DNA from: Macrostomum lignano
Taxonomy: Eukaryota
Length of the DNA: 64,000 nt
Direction of reading: 5' to 3'
Assembly: GCA_002269645.1 (NCBI GenBank)
Contig: NIVC01000075.1
Coordinates: 62,001-126,000 of the forward strand
Made by a program: the position numbers and the translations under genes. Numbering within the stretch: the first letter of the stretch is position 1; the number at the start of each line of letters is the position of its first letter. This document shows positions 1 to 10,369 of the stretch, in pieces. The notes under the pieces were generated by a model that saw only the letters and a program-made list of their open reading frames with translations, was not told where the DNA came from and ran no database searches.

Positions 1-3000
1 AGAAGCGTGATGTAAAAAATCTTAGAAGCGTCATGTAAACAATCATAGAAGTGTCATGTAAAATCATAGATGCGTCATGTAAACAATCATAGAAGCGTCA
101 TGTAAAAAATCATAGAAGCGTCATGTAAAAAATCATAGAAGCGTCATGTAAACAATCATTGAAGCGTCATGTAAAAATCATTGAAGCGTCATAAAAAATC
201 ATAGAAGCTTCATGTAAAAAATCATAGAAGCGTCATGTAAACAATCATAGAAGTGTCATGTAAAAAATCGTAGAAGCGTCATGAAAAAATCATAGAAGCG
301 TCATGTAAACAATCATAGAAGTGTCATGTAAAATCATAGATGCGTCATGTAAACAATCATAGAAGCGTCATGTAAAAATCATAGAAGCGTCATGTAAAAA
401 ATCATAGAAGCGTCATGTAAACAATCATTGAAGCGTCATGTAAACAATCATAGAAGCGTCATAAAAAATCATAGAAGCGTCATGTAAAAAATCATAGAAG
501 CGTCATGTAAACAATCATAGAAGCGTCATGTAAAAAATCGTAGAAGCGTCATGAAAAAATCATAGAAGCGTCATGTAAACAATCATAGAAGCGTCATGTA
601 AAAAATCATAGAAGCGTCATGTAAAAAATCATAGAAGCGTAATGTAAACAATCATAGACGTGTCATGTAAAAATCATAGAAGCGTCATGTAAAAATCATA
701 GAAGCGTCATGTAAACAATCATAGAAGCGTCATGTAAAAATCATAGAAGCGTCATGTAAACAATCATTGAAGCGTCATGTAAAAATCATTTAAGCGTCAT
801 GTAAAAATCATAGAAGCGTCATGTAAACAATCATAGAAGCGTAATGTAAAAGCAAAGAAGCGTCATGTAAAGATCATAGAAGCGTCATGTAAAAAAATCA
901 TAGAAGCGTCATGTAAAAAATCATAGAAGCGTCATGTAAAAAATCATAGAAGCGTCATGTAAAAATCATGAAGCGTCATGAAAAAATCATAGAAGCGTAA
1001 TGTAAAAAATCATAGAAGCGTCATGTAAAAAATCATAGAAGCGTCATGTAAAAAATCATAGAAGCGTGATGTAAAAAATCATAGAAGCGTCATGTAAACA
1101 ATCATAGAAGTGTCATGTAAAATCATAGATGCGTCATGTAAACAATCATAGAAGCGTCATGTAAAAATCATAGAAGCGTCATGTAAAAAATCATAGAAGC
1201 GTCATGTAAACAATCATTGAAGCGTCATGTAAAAATCATTGAAGCGTCATAAAAAATCATAGAAGCGTCATGTAAAAAATCATAGAAGCGTCATGTAAAC
1301 AATCATAGAAGTGTCATGTAAAAAATCGTAGAAGCGTCATGAAAAAATCATAGATGCGTCATGTAAACAATCATAGAAGCGTCATGTAAAAAATCATAGA
1401 AGCGTCATGTAAAAAATCATAGAAGCGTCATGTAAACAATCATTGAAGCGTCATGTAAACAATCATAGAAGCGTCATAAAAAATCATAGAAGCGTCATGT
1501 AAAAAATCATAGAAGCGTCATGTAAACAATCATAGAAGCGTCATGTAAAAAATCGTAGAAGCGTCATGAAAAAATCATAGAAGCGTCATGTAAACAATCA
1601 TAGAAGCGTCATGTAAAAAATCATAGAAGCGTCATGTAAGAAATCATAGAAGCGTCATGTAAACAATCATAGAAGTGTCATGTAAAAATCATAGAAGCGT
1701 CATGTAAAAATCATAGAAGCGTCATGTAAACAATCATTGAAGCGTCATGTAAAAATCATAGAAGCGTCATGTAAACAATCATTGAAGCGTCATGTAAAAA
1801 TCATTTAAGCGTCATGTAAAAATCATAGAAGCGTCATGTAAACAATCATAGAAGCGTAATGTAAAAGCAAAGAAGCGTCATGTAAAGATCATAGAAGCGT
1901 CATGTAAAAAAATCATAGAAGCGTCATGTAAAAAATCATAGAAGCGTCATGTAAAAAATCATAGAAGCGTCATGTAAAAATCATGGAAGCGTCATGAAAA
2001 AATCATAGAAGCGTAATGTAAAAAATCATAGAAGCGTCAAGTAAAAATCATAGAAGCGTCAAGTAAAAAATCATAGAAGCGTCATGTAAAAAATCATAGA
2101 AGCGTCATGAAAAAATCATTAAAGCGTCATGTAAAAATCATGAAAGCGTCATGTAAAAGGCATAGAAGCGTCATGAAAAAATCATAGAAGCGTCAAGTAA
2201 AAAATCATAGAAGCGTCAAGTAAAAATCATTAAAGCGTCATGTAAAAATCATAGAAGCGTCATGTAAAAATCATAGAAGCGTCAAGTAAAAAATCATAGA
2301 AGCGTCATGTAAACAATCATTGAAGCGTCATGTAAAAATCATTTAAGCGTCATGTAAAAATCATAGAAGCGTCATGTAAACAATCATAGAAGCGTAATGT
2401 AAAAGCAAAGAAGCGTCATGTAAAGATCATAGAAGCGTCATGTAAAAAAATCATAGAAGCGTCATGTAAAAAATCATAGAAGCGTCATGTAAAAAATCAT
2501 AGAAGCGTCATGTAAAAATCATGAAGCGTCATGAAAAAATCATAGAAGCGTAATGTAAAAAATCATAGAAGCGTCATGTAAAAAATCATAGAAGCGTCAT
2601 GTAAAAAATCATAGAAGCGTGATGTAAAAAATCATAGAAGCGTCATGTAAACAATCATAGAAGTGTCATGTAAAATCATAGATGCGTCATGTAAACAATC
2701 ATAGAAGCGTCATGTAAAAAATCATAGAAGCGTCATGTAAAAAATCATAGAAGCGTCATGTAAACAATCATTGAAGCGTCATGTAAAAATCATTGAAGCG
2801 TCATAAAAAATCATAGAAGCGTCATGTAAAAAATCATAGAAGCGTCATGTAAACAATCATAGAAGTGTCATGTAAAAAATCGTAGAAGCGTCATGAAAAA
2901 ATCATAGATGCGTCATGTAAACAATCATAGAAGCGTCATGTAAAAAATCATAGAAGCGTCATGTAAAAAATCATAGAAGCGTCATGTAAACAATCATTGA

Positions 3001-3910
3001 AGCGTCATGTAAACAATCATAGAAGCGTCATAAAAAATCATAGAAGCGTCATGTAAAAAATCATAGAAGCGTCATGTAAACAATCATAGAAGCGTCATGT
3101 AAAAAATCGTAGAAGCGTCATGAAAAAATCATAGAAGCGTCATGTAAACAATCATAGAAGCGTCATGTAAAAAATCATAGAAGCGTCATGTAAGAAATCA
3201 TAGAAGCGTCATGTAAACAATCATAGAAGTGTCATGTAAAAATCATAGAAGCGTCATGTAAAAATCATAGAAGCGTCATGTAAACAATCATTGAAGCGTC
3301 ATGTAAAAATCATAGAAGCGTCATGTAAACAATCATTGAAGCGTCATGTAAAAATCATTTAAGCGTCATGTAAAAATCATAGAAGCGTCATGTAAACAAT
3401 CATAGAAGCGTAATGTAAAAGCAAAGAAGCGTCATGTAAAGATCATAGAAGCGTCATGTAAAAAAATCATAGAAGCGTCATGTAAAAAATCATAGAAGCG
3501 TCATGTAAAAAATCATAGAAGCGTCATGTAAAAATCATGGAAGCGTCATGAAAAAATCATAGAAGCGTAATGTAAAAAATCATAGAAGCGTCAAGTAAAA
3601 ATCATAGAAGCGTCAAGTAAAAAATCATAGAAGCGTCATGTAAAAAATCATAGAAGCGTCATGAAAAAATCATTAAAGCGTCATGTAAAAATCATGAAAG
3701 CGTCATGTAAAAGGCATAGAAGCGTCATGAAAAAATCATAGAAGCGTCAAGTAAAAAATCATAGAAGCGTCAAGTAAAAATCATTAAAGCGTCATGTAAA
3801 AATCATAGAAGCGTCATGTAAAAATCATAGAAGCGTCATGTAAAAAATCATAGAAGCGTCATGTAAAAATCATGGAAGCGTCATGAAAAAATCATAGAAG
3901 CGTCATTTAA
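1..3910. repeat. Satellite array, ~23-24 bp unit (ATCATAGAAGCGTCATGTAAAAA), running off the left edge
   Basis: Directly visible tandem units with recurrent variants (AAACAAT, CATTGAAG, AGCAAAGAAG); degenerates at ~3900. Confidence 0.97.
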
Positions 3911-4764
3911 AAAATAAGGAAGCATCATGGTAGAATAAAAGAAGCGTCATGTCAGACATGAAGGGTTCATGTAAAAATTAAATGCAGCTATAATGCTGTG
4001 CTGGGGAGAAAAACAGACGTAAAGGCTCTCAGAGAATAACTGAGATTACAGGGGGGGGGGGTTTCTGAGATGTCAAAGCAAAAGCCGGAAGCTACTTCAA
4101 AGTTCATGTACTTTACTCAATTTTTTTATTGCATTCTTTGTTGGCTCGCCACGGGGTGAGGCGCTGATAGAAGAAGAGTCATGTAAAAAATAAAAGTGGC
4201 ACTATGTATACATAAAAGAAAAGTCATGTCAAAGTTTCATTTGGGAATTGCTTACAATGTCAAAGCTTGGTGGAAATCGTTATAGTGCTGTGATTCTTAA
4301 AGAAGGAATCACTAAAATGTCAAGGCTTAGGGGAGAAGAATTGCTGAGATTTCAAGACTTTAGGTTGGGTTAAAGTTAGGTTTAGGTCAGGTGTGGTTTG
4401 AGGGTTATATTTTATCGGGTTTCAAGTTTAACAGGGGGTTTTTTAGATGTCAAGGTTTTTTGGGGGCCATCGCTGACATGTCAAGGCTTACGGGGGGAAT
4501 AGCTGAGATGTCAAGGCTCACGGGGGTATAAATGAGATTTCAAGGCTAAAGTCAGAAGCTACATGTAGTTTATTGAAAACTTTTTATTACATTATTTGAT
4601 GCCTCGTCAGGGGAGGGATCGCTGATAAAAATAAAAAAAGCTTCATGTCGAAGTTAAGAGATTCATTTGGGAATCCCTACGATGTCGAGGCTTGCAGGGA
4701 ATCGCTATAATGCTGTAGTAGTGCTATAATGACTCTTAGAGAGAATTACTGAAATTTCAATGCT

Positions 4765-4839
4765 TTAGGGTTAGGGTTAGGGTTAGGGTTAGGTTAGGGT
4801 TATGGTTAGGGTTAGGGTTAGGTTTAGGGTTAGGGTTAG
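4765..4839 (+). repeat. Interstitial telomere-type repeat (TTAGGG)n, ~12.5 units, 9 perfect
   Basis: Read directly; lies inside the Helitron-like element. Confidence 0.95.
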
Positions 4840-5067
4840 AAGGTTGATTGACAGATATTTTTAGATTTCCAAGGCTTATTGGGGGCATTGCTGAGATGTC
4901 AAGGGGGGAAGTTGATATGTTAAAGCTTGTGGGGGGGAATTACTGACATGTCAAGGCTTACAAGGTTTGACAGGAGATTTTTTAAGATTTCAAGGATACA
5001 TGTAGCTTATTAAAAAAACGTGTATTGCATTTCTTTGGCTCCCCAACGGGGGGCGTAGATTGCTAGT

Positions 5068-7578
5068 CAATTAACTAAGAAAGGTATTCAAAACTTTAGG
5101 GAAAAGTGGACCAAGAAACATGACGAGGCTTTCCAGCAGTTGAAGCAGAGAATGACATCGACCGAAGTACTCGCGTACCCAGAATTCTCAGAGAACGAGA
5201 ATGTTCGAATGGTATTAGACACCGACGCAAGCGAAGACCGAATTGGTGCTTGCCTGGGTCAAATACAATCGGACGGGGTTGAAAGACCCATTGCTTACTT
5301 CAGCAGAGCAATGAAAGAGTCTGAGAAAAGATATCCGATTACCAGAAAAGAGCTATTAGCGCTAGTAGATGGCATGAAACACTTCCGATTTTACCTAATT
5401 GGCAAAAGGTTTCTGGCCCGCACAGACCACAAGGCAATTCTATGGTTACTGCGCCAGACCGAAGCCCAAGGAATTCTCGGAAGATGGATTGAAAGACTGA
5501 GTGAGTTTCAATACGATATTGAGCACCGCAGTGGAGCCAAACATTCCAACGCAGATGGATTGTCACGGCGACCCTCGGAACCACCAGTTGAACAGAAAGA
5601 TGCTAAGATCAAAGAGAATGAGGCCGAAATTCCTAAGATGACAATAGAAACCAGCGCTGTGAAACAAGTCGTGACTAACAGCGTGAAAGATCAGAGTTGC
5701 CAGACCGACTTCACAGAAGAGTATGAATCAGATTCCGAAGACGAATTCGCAGATGATGAATACGAAGATGCCAGTGATCAGTTCGAAGATAATGATGACA
5801 TCTATGAAGATGCAAGAGACTATTTCGAAGAGGAAGAGACAGTGTGCAGAAAGCTTCTGACAGATTACCTCTCGGTTCCATTGAAGAAAGAGCAGCTGAC
5901 TTCAGCGCAGCATGCTGATCCTTCTATAAGAACCTTGATGGACTGGAAGCAGAAGAAAGTGCGTGAGCCGAATTTGCCAGAAAATGCATCCGGAGAGTTG
6001 AAGAAGATGGTTAAGTTCTACGAGCAGATGAAAATCGAAGATGAAATGCTGACAGTCAGTGAAGACGGTAAACGGAAAGTAGTATTGCCAGAAAGGATTG
6101 AGAAAGATGTATTCAAAGAGCTGCATGACAGTCCGCTAGCAGGCCACCTAGGTCGGGACAAGACGCTACAGCGAGTCCGAGACCGATTCTGGAGGCCGGG
6201 GTTAGTGACTGCAGTTGAAAAGTACATCGCAGAATGCATCCCGTGTCTGGAAAGTAAAAGCGGAAATAAAGTACGAGCACCGGTGCAGACCTTTCCGATA
6301 TGCGAGCCATTTCATCGGCTGCACATAGATTTGATCGGTCCAATATCAAAGGAAAGCAGAAGAGGACACCGATATGTACTTACTGTCGTAGATAGTACAA
6401 CAAAGTTCCCATTCGCTTTTCCGGTTCGGAATCAGAAATCCGCGACTGTTATCAAAACGATACAAGAGAGAATTTTCAGCGAGTATGGCCAGTGTCAATG
6501 GATACACACTGATAATGGCAAGACTTTTGTAAGTCACCAATTTCAGGCATTCTGTACCCTATACGGCATTAAGCATACTTGCACTACGCCTTACCATGCT
6601 CAGAGTAACGGGCTTGTCGAAAGATTTAACAAGCAAATTAAATCGATTGTAACCTGTTTGATTGAAAAGGATCATTCAGATTGGGATCTGCTCATACCCG
6701 CCGCTCTGGTAGCTGTGCGAACCAGTGTTAATCAAACTACTGGGTTCACACCACACTACTTACTATTCGGGAGAGAAGCAGATTTGCCAATAGATAGCAT
6801 TGTGAAAAGGCCAAGACTATACCGAGACTATCCTAGCTATGTGCTGGATCATGCGAAGAGAATCGAGGAGACAAAAGCAATTGTGCGAAGACAACTCGAA
6901 AAGGTGCGAGAGAAAAGGCAAGAGGACGAAGTTGAGAATCGTCAGCCTAAAAATGTGCCAGTTGGCTGTCTCGCTCTCATCAACAATCCTCAACTTCACC
7001 AAGAGGAGAGCCACAAATTTCATCGAAAGAAAAGAGCAGCCTATCGAGTTCTTGCGAAGATATCTGATACAGTTTTCCGTGTGCAAAGAGAAATCAATGG
7101 CGAAAGGAGCGGAGAAAAACTATTAGTACATAGAAATAATCTGACTCCAGTGCCGAAATCCGAAATTGATTTACCAGAGGAAATTAATAATAATTTAAAA
7201 CCAGCACCAGTGCCAACTAAGAAGAAAGAACAGCCGAAGCCGAAGAAAAGAATTTGCCATAGACAAAAAGAAGTTAGAATTCCAGAAGTTCAAATTTTAG
7301 AGGAGGAAAGCTCAGACGAAGAAAACAGAATTCAATGGAGAGTATTCGCAGATCCGAATTCGCAGAGTGAAAACGAAGGAAATGAAGAAGTAAACAGTGA
7401 AAATACAGAGAGAGCGACTGACTCAGATGAGCCATCAGAAGAAGAAGAAGGAGCATTAGAGTTAGAGGAGGAACGAGTTCAGCCAGAGAATAGGTATAAC
7501 TTTAGGATGACTCAGCGAAGGAGAGAAAGAGAAGGCGCGACAGATTTGTGCCCCGAAGGCGCTACGCGAAATATTTAG
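5068..7578 (+). CDS. pol: Gypsy pol, 5'-interrupted: RT connection, RNase H, acidic linker, integrase
   Basis: The frame is open from 5068 (QLTKKGIQNFREKWTKKHDEAFQQLK), upstream of the ORF-track start. RNase H motifs: DTDASEDRIGA, ELLALV, TDHKAI, HRSGAKHSNADGLSR. Integrase: HHCC (HDSPLAGH...CIPC) and DDE core (HIDLIG, HTDNG, SNGLVERFN). Confidence 0.95.
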   Translation, partial: QLTKKGIQNFREKWTKKHDEAFQQLKQRMTSTEVLAYPEFSENENVRMVLDTDASEDRIGACLGQIQSDGVERPIAYFSRAMKESEKRYPITRKELLALVDGMKHFRFYLIGKRFLARTDHKAILWLLRQTEAQGILGRWIERLSEFQYDIEHRSGAKHSNADGLSRRPSEPPVEQKDAKIKENEAEIPKMTIETSAVKQVVTNSVKDQSCQTDFTEEYESDSEDEFADDEYEDASDQFEDNDDIYEDARDYFEEEETVCRKLLTDYLSVPLKKEQLTSAQHADPSIRTLMDWKQKKVREPNLPENASGELKKMVKFYEQMKIEDEMLTVSEDGKRKVVLPERIEKDVFKELHDSPLAGHLGRDKTLQRVRDRFWRPGLVTAVEKYIAECIPCLESKSGNKVRAPVQTFPICEPFHRLHIDLIGPISKESRRGHRYVLTVVDSTTKFPFAFPVRNQKSATVIKTIQERIFSEYGQCQWIHTDNGKTFVSHQFQAFCTLYGIKHTCTTPYHAQSNGLVERFNKQIKSIVTCLIEKDHSDWDLLIPAALVAVRTSVNQTTGFTPHYLLFGREADLPIDSIVKRPRLYRDYPSYVLDHAKRIEETKAIVRRQLEKVREKRQEDEVENRQPKNVPVGCLALINNPQLHQEESHKFHRKKRAAYRVLAKISDTVFRVQREINGERSGEKLLVHRNNLTPVPKSEIDLPEEINNNLKPAPVPTKKKEQPKPKKRICHRQKEVRIPEVQILEEESSDEENRIQWRVFADPNSQSENEGNEEVNSENTERATDSDEPSEEEEGALELEEERVQPENRYNFRMTQRRREREGATDLCPEGATRNI

Positions 7579-7835
7579 CACCTTAAATCATGACGTAAGC
7601 AATTTCCCATAAGAAACAGTGTTAAATAGTTAAAATTCCGTATTAGAATTACTTATCTGCTTATAAAATTTGACATGCTGTACATAGAGCGAATCTGTAA
7701 ATACCATATTAATCTACAAAATGCGATCTTTAATTTGATACTTTACTCAAGAAAATCTATCAAAAAATAAAAAAGTTATAAAAAGAAATAGAAAATCCAT
7801 AAAAATTTAGTTGTCAAATCTGTCAAATCTGGCAT

Positions 7836-7945
7836 GCCCCGCCCCACGCGCGAGGGGAGTGCTTCGAAGAGGTCCAGTTTTTCGGCCCGCCAGCCTATAA
7901 ATACGAGCACCCCGCAGGCCCCACAGATCCCATAGCTCACTGCTA
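7836..7945 (+). promoter_or_regulatory. Putative Pol II core promoter for the extra ORF
   Basis: GC box GCCCCGCCCC at 7836-7845, TATAAATA at 7896-7903, Inr-like CTCACT ~35 nt downstream, and CAAAATG start context at 7987. Confidence 0.55.
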
Positions 7946-7986
7946 GCTTCCTTTCTATTCTAAGAGCCATTCGCAGAGAAATCAAA

Positions 7987-8862
7987 ATGAACAACTCTAT
8001 TGATATCTTGGACGAGTTAATTGGCAATCTGTCAGACGATATGGAGCCCCAGCCAGCGCCCAACACCGATGAAAATGAGGCACCGCTTCGATGTACAACA
8101 CGTCCAAAGGCGCCTGGTGTATCCAGCAAACGGCCAAGAACATCATCGCCAGCTTCATCGCCTTGCCGCCAAATGAGGGTCGAAGGCCCCGAGCAGAAGC
8201 GCGCCGCCCTGGTGGCAGCACAGGCAGCTGCGCCCGTGCGCTCCTATGTTGTCAAGGCCACGCCAGGATCATCGACATCAAGCCGAACGCAGCAGTTGGT
8301 GTCACCGCCAGCTGCCCCATCATCGAGAAAGACCCCGGCACCACGGCAGAAGAAATCGACAGCTGCGACACCGCCAGCTCAGCAGCCAGCGTCGCAGCCG
8401 AGCCTGCAATCAGCGCAGCAGTCAGCGCTGCAGCCGAGCCTGCAATCAGCGCAGCAGTCTAGCCAGCCATCAGCACTACAGCCGAGCCAGCAGCAATCGA
8501 ATTCGCAGAGAGATTTTCATCGCATCGTCCGAGAACTTGTGGAGACTCGCGGAGCAGAGGTGGAAAAGCTACGCTTCCACATTGAGCAATACGCACTGAA
8601 AGTAGCATACCACCGATCCGACAGCCGACAGCGCTACCCCCAATGCTCGCAAATTTGGACACACCTGAAGTTTCTGAGGGATCAATTCAGTTACCAGGAA
8701 GCTGTCGCTGTTCTCCAGGACGTCGCCTATCGCCTCCAGCGAGCTATAAGAGCCAACCCGCCGCCAGCGCTGACGGTCCTCGACGAAGAGTACCGATGGT
8801 TTTTCGCTCAAGTCGGCTGGCCCTACTATCGCGACCTCCCGGAACCCTGCATGTTTATCTGA
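7987..8862 (+). CDS. Intact 291-aa accessory ORF of Gypsy A, unknown function
   Basis: ATG to TGA with no stops. P/S/A/Q-rich N-terminal two thirds with a duplicated QPSLQSAQQS, and a complex, probably helical, C-terminal ~115 aa. No signal peptide or TM segment is seen. Confidence 0.7.
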   Translation: MNNSIDILDELIGNLSDDMEPQPAPNTDENEAPLRCTTRPKAPGVSSKRPRTSSPASSPCRQMRVEGPEQKRAALVAAQAAAPVRSYVVKATPGSSTSSRTQQLVSPPAAPSSRKTPAPRQKKSTAATPPAQQPASQPSLQSAQQSALQPSLQSAQQSSQPSALQPSQQQSNSQRDFHRIVRELVETRGAEVEKLRFHIEQYALKVAYHRSDSRQRYPQCSQIWTHLKFLRDQFSYQEAVAVLQDVAYRLQRAIRANPPPALTVLDEEYRWFFAQVGWPYYRDLPEPCMFI

Positions 8863-9145
8863 ACTACTGAGGTGAACTAACTTTTGCGTTGCCTTTAATA
8901 ACAATTTTGCCTTTTATAATACTTTTATAATAGTTCGCTTTGCTTCCATAATAGTTCTCACTTTAATGGTTTACCTACATAATAGTTCTATCACAACCAT
9001 TTTATGCACCAATTGTTTTAGCACTGAATTGTGTTTTCTGCACCTTGCTTTGCACCTTTTCACCTGCATTTTCCTACGATATCAATTTTTCACTGTATAC
9101 ATATAATATAGTATTTCGTTCAAAATTTGATATATAGAGGAGGAA

Positions 9146-9826
9146 AGTTGTACTAGTGCTATGCCTTTATCATAGTATACTCGAATGTTCTTTCAATGTA
9201 ATAACTGTATATTCGAATCTTTCTTAGAAACTGAATCTACGCGAACGCCAAATAATAGTTTGTTTTAATGCGCGAAATAAATTGGAGAATTATTTTTTTG
9301 TTTTAATCGTATGTGGGGGAAATCACTATATATAGGAGTGGTTTCGCGACAAATATACTCCAACTGTCTTTTACTCGTGAGCAAATAATTGCGAACAGAA
9401 TAAGCAGTTCAATCTAAACCATTTCAAAGTCTTTGAGCTAAATAGCGACTTATTTATTTGCAAAACCTGTGAAACGATTCTAAGAAATTTGCTAAGAGAA
9501 GGGAATTGGGACTAATTCTTGGAGATATACCAAGAGAGGCGCCGTGACCCTCTAGTCTCGGTGAACGCCCGATTAGGACTATACACTAATACATATACCA
9601 GTACTAGACCGCTCAGGCCATAAGCTACTAGAACGCTACCAGAAAGCAAGCCATAAGCTACCAGAAACGCTACTAAGAACGCTACTAAGAACGCTACCCA
9701 GAAATATTTAAATGAAATTCTAAGAAATAGTTAGGGAGTAAAAGCAAGTATAATCAGGATAACTGTAGTTGGCAAATCGGTGGGATTAAAATTGATAAAG
9801 TAAGAGGTGAAAGGCCTGTAACAACT
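9146..9826 (+). repeat. Putative LTR of Gypsy A (AGTTGTAC...GTAACAACT)
   Basis: Preceded by a PPT; inverted termini AGTTGT/ACAACT; internal TATATATA (~9328) and short tandem repeats (~9620-9700); followed by a PBS-like sequence. The partner LTR is not in the window. Confidence 0.55.
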
Positions 9827-9827
9827 T

Positions 9828-9846
9828 TGGTGGCAGCTCGTAGGAT
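9828..9846 (+). other. Primer-binding-site-like motif TGGTGGCAGCTCGTAGGAT (tRNA-Leu type)
   Basis: Close to TGGTGGCAGCGGTGGGAT, the complement of the tRNA-Leu(AAG) 3' end as recalled; lies 1 nt after the LTR end. Confidence 0.55.
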
Positions 9847-10369
9847 ATTTAATAAACACTAATAGTTAGAAGTTTAGAAAGACAGAGCCAAAAGGCCTGT
9901 CACACAATAGTTTAATTAACAAACAATTTGAGAAGAATGCCATTTTTCTTTTCTTGCCAACATTTGCTTGCAATGCTTTTTTCTACAAATCATTGCCCCT
10001 GCCTAATATTTAATAACTCACTCTTAATAAAGATAAAGACTAGGCCTAGCCTAAAAGTCAATGATGCTAGGCCTAATTGTCAATTGATGGCTTGATGCTA
10101 GGCCTAGGAATAATGCATCAATGCCAAGCCATCAATGCATACATGATACATCTTTCTTAGACCTATTTAAATATTTAATAGTATTATATTATAACATGTC
10201 CATGTCCATCCTCATTCCTCCATCTACTTGTTAAAATCCAATCCCAAGTGATTGTTGACTAATTCTGTGAAAAAATGTGCACTTTTGTTTCAAATTATCA
10301 GTAGTAAGCTATAAACTACTATTATCAATAAATATTATGCTTTAAATATTTGGAATAGGCCTATAACTT

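Follow-up and report, generated by a model that had tools for sequence, protein, structure and literature searches.

The locus under study raises the question of what is encoded by an intact open reading frame (ORF3) located between pol and the 3' LTR of a Gypsy element of Macrostomum lignano, within a window of 64,000 nucleotides (the whole stretch of DNA that was analysed). To our knowledge, few element-encoded regulators have been described, and the expression of animal LTR retrotransposons despite host silencing is largely open.

Element structure and genomic context of ORF3

The copy in the window is 5'-truncated, its identity to full-length elements beginning at position 5067. Full elements are about 8.7 kb long and organised as LTR-gag-pol-ORF3-LTR, with env absent. 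They are flanked by 4-bp target duplications, and their LTR pairs are mostly 98-100% identical. ORF3 is located on the sense strand between pol and the polypurine tract (PPT). As described in an earlier interpretation of this DNA (the sequence-only reading), a 291-aa frame without a stop extends over 7987-8862, and the pol frame of the window ends at 7578. The features of the locus are as follows.

5067..7578, + strand: 5'-truncated Gypsy pol with RNase H, integrase and an acidic tail (Pfam RT_RNaseH, Integrase_H2C2, rve)
5152-7578, + strand: ATG-started pol frame within the truncated Gypsy pol
7128..9904, + strand: 3' module (pol tail, promoter, ORF3, PPT, LTR) kept by pol-less satellites of about 5 kb
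7836..7845, + strand: GC box of the putative internal promoter (sequence motif; CCAAT boxes in other families)
7869..7883, + strand: conserved core block of the putative internal promoter (14/28 families; LTR-less locus L069)
7896..7903, + strand: TATA box of the putative internal promoter (12/28 families at -60 to -130)
7925..7940, + strand: predicted transcription start region, about 30 nt after the TATA box
7987..8862, + strand: ORF3, 291-aa accessory protein (P0001)
7996..8031, + strand: acidic amphipathic helix, residues 4-15, predicted activation or partner-binding motif (AF2, low pLDDT)
8089..8136, + strand: RxxTxP (residues 35-40) and KRP basic patch (48-50), predicted phospho-site and NLS-like patch
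8191..8226, + strand: conserved short helix, residues 69-80 (alignment, model, motif in 20/28 families)
8503..8859, + strand: five-helix C-terminal domain of no known family (pLDDT 88.7, pTM 0.84; invariant D, P, L, W)
9136..9148, + strand: PPT (sequence motif)
9149..9904, + strand: 3' LTR, 756 bp; U3 with TTGTTTWA repeats and a TTCYNRGAA palindrome (9221-9229), TATA at 9327-9334
9828..9845, + strand: PBS-like relic inside the LTR

The 4-bp target duplications, together with the PBS, which we take to be of Leu type, suggest a placement of the element in the Gmr1/Osvaldo cluster. For this cluster, 40 families are described among the Gypsy elements of M. lignano (PMC12801592); the accessible portions of that paper hold no mention of an extra ORF in elements of this species. 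One or more PBS-like relics are found in the 3' part of the LTRs at many loci, and PBS variants are not uniform among copies of one family. Two elements in tandem with one common LTR were observed at L082/L083 (G000:C2404) and at L088 (G000:C241). Upstream of the truncated element, the window contains a 23-bp satellite array (1-3950) and a short TTAGGG tract (4770-4840). No tRNA genes were found in the window.

Linkage of ORF3 to a Gypsy clade

DNA matches to positions 7600-9200 comprised 139 candidates, and 32 of the 40 that were scored, the window included, are full-length at 96-100% identity. For the C-terminal domain, at least 150 scored matches (230 candidates) were obtained at 27-100% identity; three protein searches with different ORF3 alleles as queries gave at least 150 scored matches each. 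Parts of gag, mini-gag or pol are located upstream of ORF3 at 51 of 60 diverse loci fetched, and four of the remaining nine have a PPT and an LTR start downstream. Integrase matches of at least 48% identity at 119 distinct places were compared by hand with the ORF3 match lists. At least 104 of these places have an ORF3 match within 3 kb downstream. The others are two with ORF3 at about 7 kb, two at contig ends and 11 without ORF3 among the matches listed; two of the 11 were inspected, one carrying an interrupted ORF3 and one carrying none. The proposed linkage of the frame to other copies of the element is thus borne out, and ORF3 is confirmed as a genuine gene of a Gypsy clade of M. lignano. 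For the L051 group, a host gene was suspected and then dismissed: its duplicated flanks enclose a frameshifted copy that has a PPT and an LTR.

Features of the ORF3 protein

The proteins have a common order of parts: the N-terminal helix is acidic and is followed by a variable linker of low complexity, then by RxxTxP and the basic patch, by a short helix and, last, by the five-helix domain. The acidic helix was absent from the description in the sequence-only reading. The first 30 aa carry a net charge of -7 to -11 in all 17 near families and in 13 of 15 far ORFs; the two remaining far ORFs are truncated. The AF2 model places a helix at residues 4-15 with low pLDDT. Strict RxxTxP, presumably a 14-3-3-site-like motif, occurs in 24 of 28 families (at most 3 in shuffled sequences), KR[PQSA] in 21 (shuffle maximum 14) and the short-helix motif in 20 (shuffle maximum 4), the last pattern missing the variant of the window. 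The basic patches KRPRTSSP and RQKKS are present as quoted before. The C-terminal domain, earlier called compact, is confidently predicted as a five-helix fold of about 120 aa (pLDDT 88.7, pTM 0.84) in which D, P, L and W are invariant. It is mildly basic (+1 to +7) and forms the single folded domain of the model, with no invariant Cys among the conserved columns. Prediction of a homodimer gave no dimer answer (score 0.01).

No membrane helix was detected: the best 19-residue Kyte-Doolittle mean is 1.02 in the window protein and at most 1.11 in 17/17 families, and no hydrophobic helix is present in 15/15 far ORFs. Because a transmembrane helix is lacking, ORF3 is not env, although it occupies the env position. 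The view that signal peptide and membrane anchor are missing therefore stands, and the N-terminus is strongly acidic instead. A fusion glycoprotein fold has no row among the viral and PDB fold matches, an absence from a list that amounts to no exclusion.

For P0001, Pfam returned 0 families at E<=1, and the best match of a PDB sequence search has E=0.73. A fold search against PDB and viral libraries gave nothing at E<=0.001; its best Z values, 7.5 and 7.9, are in the chance range and establish neither a known nor a new fold. The C-terminal domain resembles no known DNA-binding fold, and the Atlas was blank for the window domain. Word-index protein searches gave no match and also missed known relatives, so these searches are weak. 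A full HMMER scan gave five matches, namely three M. lignano hypothetical proteins, one Logan protein and one fungal TPR protein. The fungal match was judged to be due to chance, as was a 33-residue match at the metagenome locus L121. With no significant match in Pfam or among folds, and none to an env or host family, the protein agrees with the undescribed type proposed before.

Selection on ORF3

The dN/dS ratio of the C-terminal domain was calculated for 30 pairs, of which 12 are saturated at synonymous sites, one is without synonymous change and 17 are computable. It is at most 0.27 in 16 of the 17, the outlier of 1.29 being derived from five changes. For the window and L031, pS is 0.77 and dN 0.107 (Fisher p=6e-32). 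Pairs of short elements only have ratios of 0.21-0.34. Across 21 of the 29 close copies, the distinct changes number 17 synonymous and 8 non-synonymous; the other 8 copies were excluded as chimeric or diverged. ORF3 is under strong purifying selection, with ratios across genomic copies far below 1, which is in line with the accessory protein of the sequence-only reading. Positive selection was dismissed as the cause of the diversity of ORF3, given that the protein has changed little although its synonymous sites have reached saturation.

Frame-disrupting indels are found in 15 of the 29 near-identical copies, and six have one in common, located in a homopolymer run. Since gag-pol of some copies is split similarly, these indels are likely, if unproven, assembly errors. 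They are, along with the env-like position, what would speak for ORF3 as a degenerate env or a non-functional frame. This reading is refuted by selection (16/17 pairs; 17 versus 8 changes) and by composition, there being no hydrophobic helix in 17/17 and 15/15 proteins, and is considered highly improbable.

Putative internal promoter and expression

Of the promoter-like letters reported earlier, the GC box at 7836-7845, TATAAATA at 7896-7903 and CAAAATG at 7983-7989 are in place. Promoter motifs were scored over 28 families against shuffled sequences. A TATA box 60-130 nt upstream of ORF3 occurs in 12 families (shuffle maximum 4) and in 15 with a looser pattern, a TATA-like box being absent from 13 in the window searched. 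The core block is found in 14 families (shuffle maximum 1), and CCAAT in 12, above shuffles. Splice acceptors upstream of ORF3 are not enriched (4/28 versus 4.7 in shuffled sequences), and the leaders of 5/5 full elements have no donor-like site. Promoter and U3 were not found to share any motif; the core block occurs in the LTR of only 1 of the 28 sequences scanned.

Contigs of four runs that are probably RNA, though none is on record as such, cover ORF3 and most of pol; they are blind to start and strand. Two of them, X4 (7153-9178) and X6 (7281-9344), cross the predicted start, for which genomic RNA or DNA accounts equally. Contigs with loose ends at 7128 are present in 3 of the 4 probable RNA runs. 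The gene models of M. lignano are described as built from RNA data (PMC5730564). The claim of a self-promoted gene thus holds in part: a separate promoter for ORF3 is supported by motif conservation (TATA, core block, CCAAT) and by retention at an LTR-less locus, but no transcript start was seen and contigs cross 7925-7940.

In an alternative reading, ORF3 would be a post-transcriptional factor of the Rev/CERV/ICP27 type that binds element RNA and brings in host proteins for export or processing, allowing unspliced genomic RNA to exit the nucleus. A precedent among Gypsy-type elements is CERV, which serves the export of genomic RNA (PMC10309623), and the sister clade described below appears to be spliced. 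The motif VxxRL[GA] occurs in 10 of 28 families (shuffle maximum 4) and resembles the REF-binding site of ICP27, for which R107 and L108 are described as key (PMC3017119), but the window protein has no RLG motif. Weak fold neighbours are the Gle1 CTD (Z 7.9, rmsd 3.5, 120 aligned) and Pdcd4 (Z 6.0), Z values that helical bundles also reach by chance. The RS/RP content does not exceed that of shuffled sequences (12 versus 10.9), a cysteine loop of the CERV type is absent, and the lack of donor-like sites in the leaders also argues against RNA export, which is regarded as doubtful.

Exchange of ORF3 between elements

Along the element, LTRs included, L032 and L073 share 94-100% identity, which falls to 74-75% over ORF3. 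In L033 and L035, gag-pol is 93-100% identical to L032/L073, and the stretch from the promoter region through U3 is different. In 5 of 7 multi-member RT groups (at least 96% nucleotide identity), ORF3 domains diverge down to 43-56% identity. Upstream identity is high and unbroken to -134..-6 of the ATG and then drops in 10 of 18 pairs, which are non-independent. ORF3 is thus exchanged as a module between near-identical gag-pol backbones, the switch often lying just behind the putative promoter.

U3 tracks ORF3 in 141 of 144 near-identical pairs, as expected from their physical linkage. A strict lock between the two was not supported, the pairing being broken by L032 and L046/L064. Within U3 (window 9149-9330), TTGTTTWA is present in 17 of 23 families and the TTCYNRGAA palindrome, which we take to be STAT-like, in 10 of 23, both far above shuffles. 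Additional U3 sites, presumably YY1-like, were observed in 6 of 23 families.

Many old alleles on swept backbones would suit an arms race, in which ORF3 would be a counter-defence protein that disables a host silencing factor (piRNA or heterochromatin) and has no direct action on the LTR. As U3 motifs are common across alleles, an allele-specific DNA target is unnecessary, and element-encoded anti-silencing has a precedent in the VANC proteins of plants, as far as these are described. The divergence of ORF3 is, however, mostly synonymous, with strong protein constraint and not positive selection, and no host partner was identified. Counter-defence is therefore judged unlikely.

Pol-less satellites and an LTR-less locus

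Many copies are elements of about 5 kb in which pol is absent, Gag is reduced to a diverged mini-Gag and ORF3 is kept. The mini-Gag has about 192 aa, is intact in most copies translated, is 35-40% identical to the helper Gag and contains a Cys/His knuckle. Satellite loci are L071, L072, L076-L078, L080, L086, L087, L089 and L090, and further L031, L034, L036, L037, L043, L046, L065 and L066. Short (24) and full (35) elements are intermixed in the tree built from ORF3, where well-supported branches require at least 7 changes. Judged from these sequences, the satellites are an old lineage that exchanges ORF3 with its helpers. ORF3 could persist in them solely through resupply by recombination with helpers.

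An LTR-less, pol-less locus, located on G000:C846 near 44,000, is present in three copies (L069:7690-8270, L111, L112) with common flanks of 91-97% identity. It retains the ORF3 promoter including the core block, ahead of an intact domain-only ORF of 118/119 aa. The ORFs of L069 and L112 match the M. lignano proteins P0006 and P0008. L069 and L111 differ by 4 synonymous versus 1 non-synonymous codon change.

The same material bears on ORF3 as a repressor or immunity factor that would limit copy number or exclude like elements. The control modules of lambdoid phages provide an analogy, the alleles corresponding to immunity types. Gene-sized swaps on identical backbones (L032 versus L073) and the tracking of ORF3 by U3 suit such a role, and a repressor domain would be of immediate use to a host that captured it. 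The tracking is, however, predicted by physical linkage, the acidic N-terminus favours activation, and a satellite would gain little from repressing its helper. Repression is considered quite improbable.

Proposed function and comparison with known systems

The reading preferred here, held tentatively and short of even probability, is that ORF3 encodes a nuclear trans-activator or de-silencer analogous to Tas of foamy viruses. It is favoured by the layout of acidic helix, basic patch and folded domain, by the Tas-like position and promoter, and by retention in satellites. A short mRNA would run from near 7930 to the 3' LTR. The protein would enter the nucleus via its basic patch, perhaps gated by phosphorylation of RxxTxP. 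The helical domain may then bind a host factor or the chromatin of the element, and recruitment of histone chaperones or co-activators by the acidic helix may increase, in trans, transcription from the LTRs of every related element. Satellites would retain ORF3 because it wakes the helpers they need, and old alleles would persist because the stretch from ORF3 to U3, which would correspond to the short mRNA, gains from rarity under small-RNA silencing. In this view, the host may have captured the domain-only copy that lacks LTRs as an inhibitor. Counting against activation are the domain, which is mildly basic and resembles no known DNA-binding fold, the lack of a motif shared by promoter and U3, the ORF3-U3 pairing that is not locked, the contigs across the predicted start, the 13 families without a TATA-like box, the splice-acceptor-like site of the sister clade and the frame-disrupting indels of close copies. 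A wider three-party scheme, in which a self-promoted activator of a new family is cassette-shuffled against small-RNA silencing, mini-Gag satellites wake their helpers and the host has captured a truncated dominant-negative inhibitor, is thought rather unlikely as a whole. If activation in trans is true, regulation in the style of complex retroviruses arose separately in env-less Gypsy elements.

Tas is described as an acidic nuclear activator with an internal promoter (PMC517496). The likeness of ORF3 to Tas/Bel1 consists of an accessory gene just before the 3' LTR and an acidic region, the ORF3 promoter being putative. The acidic part is C-terminal in Tas but N-terminal in ORF3, there is no Pfam match, and the carrier is an env-less gag-pol Gypsy element rather than a spumaretroviral genome. 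Tas/Bel1 binds response elements in both internal promoter and LTR; the ORF3 core block is found in the LTR of 1 of the 28 sequences scanned. CERV of the C. elegans element Cer1 is reported as a novel, phospho-regulated nuclear accessory protein, likewise of a Gypsy-type element, and differs, as described there, in its spliced mRNA, three folded domains and cysteine loop from ORF3, with one 120-aa domain and promoter motifs (PMC10309623).

The ORF3s described for LTR elements of bdelloid rotifers encode env, a GDSL esterase, a DEDDy nuclease or small membrane ORFs; position in animal elements and modular exchange are alike (PMC5408684), but the flatworm ORF3 has no enzyme or membrane feature. 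Conserved extra ORFs of plant elements are reported to be of unknown origin and function and often antisense, and no homology to the flatworm ORF3 was detected in the present searches (PMC7264820). VANC proteins, as far as described, are anti-silencing proteins with sequence-specific targets; a possible element-encoded de-silencing is the likeness, and their origin from plant VANDAL DNA transposons and the sequence-specific targets are the differences. No paper on ORF3 or env of Macrostomum or flatworm Gypsy elements was found in a search of mainly open-access literature. Extra ORFs at this position are already known, and the ORF3 family, allele shuffling, satellite carriage and apparent host capture, as read from the sequences, were not found in print in that search. 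ORF3 represents a new protein family on young elements; it exists in dozens of natural alleles, is carried by satellites and may have yielded an inhibitor captured by the host. Its function is directly testable, since working transgenesis and published LTR-reporter assays are described for M. lignano (PMC12801592).

A related gene in a sister clade

A sister Gypsy clade (L122-L131) has an integrase 33-37% identical to that of the ORF3 clade. An ORF of 240-285 aa is located in the same place at 9 of the 10 loci fetched, the tenth ending at a contig edge, and has 79 genome matches. Profile comparison of its domain with ORF3 (hhalign) gave 80-87 colinear columns at E=3e-4 and a probability of 37-40%, with reversed controls at E=0.075-0.24. 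A splice-acceptor-like site precedes the ORF in 4/4 loci tested and in 0/500 shuffles, and no TATA box was found before it in 6/6. Given this homologue, the ORF3 gene is likely old, with an altered mode of expression.

A histone-fold origin (NF-YB/NC2/TAF type) was suggested by an Atlas lead of 0.80-0.84 for the sister domain and was not supported by hhalign: comparisons with small host sets gave E=0.065-0.45, like reversed controls, and the monomer model breaks the central helix.

The possibility that ORF3 acts in the particle or at integration, as a Gag or integrase cofactor or a chromatin tether, draws on its retention alongside mini-Gag in satellites and on the sister clade. A tight interface is hard to reconcile with ORF3 alleles of 43-56% identity that function alongside near-identical Gag and Pol, and such a role is judged improbable. 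The sister-clade observation concerned is a weak match of the acidic helix to a C-terminal fragment of DNAJC9 (E=0.022), a protein with a histone-binding role.
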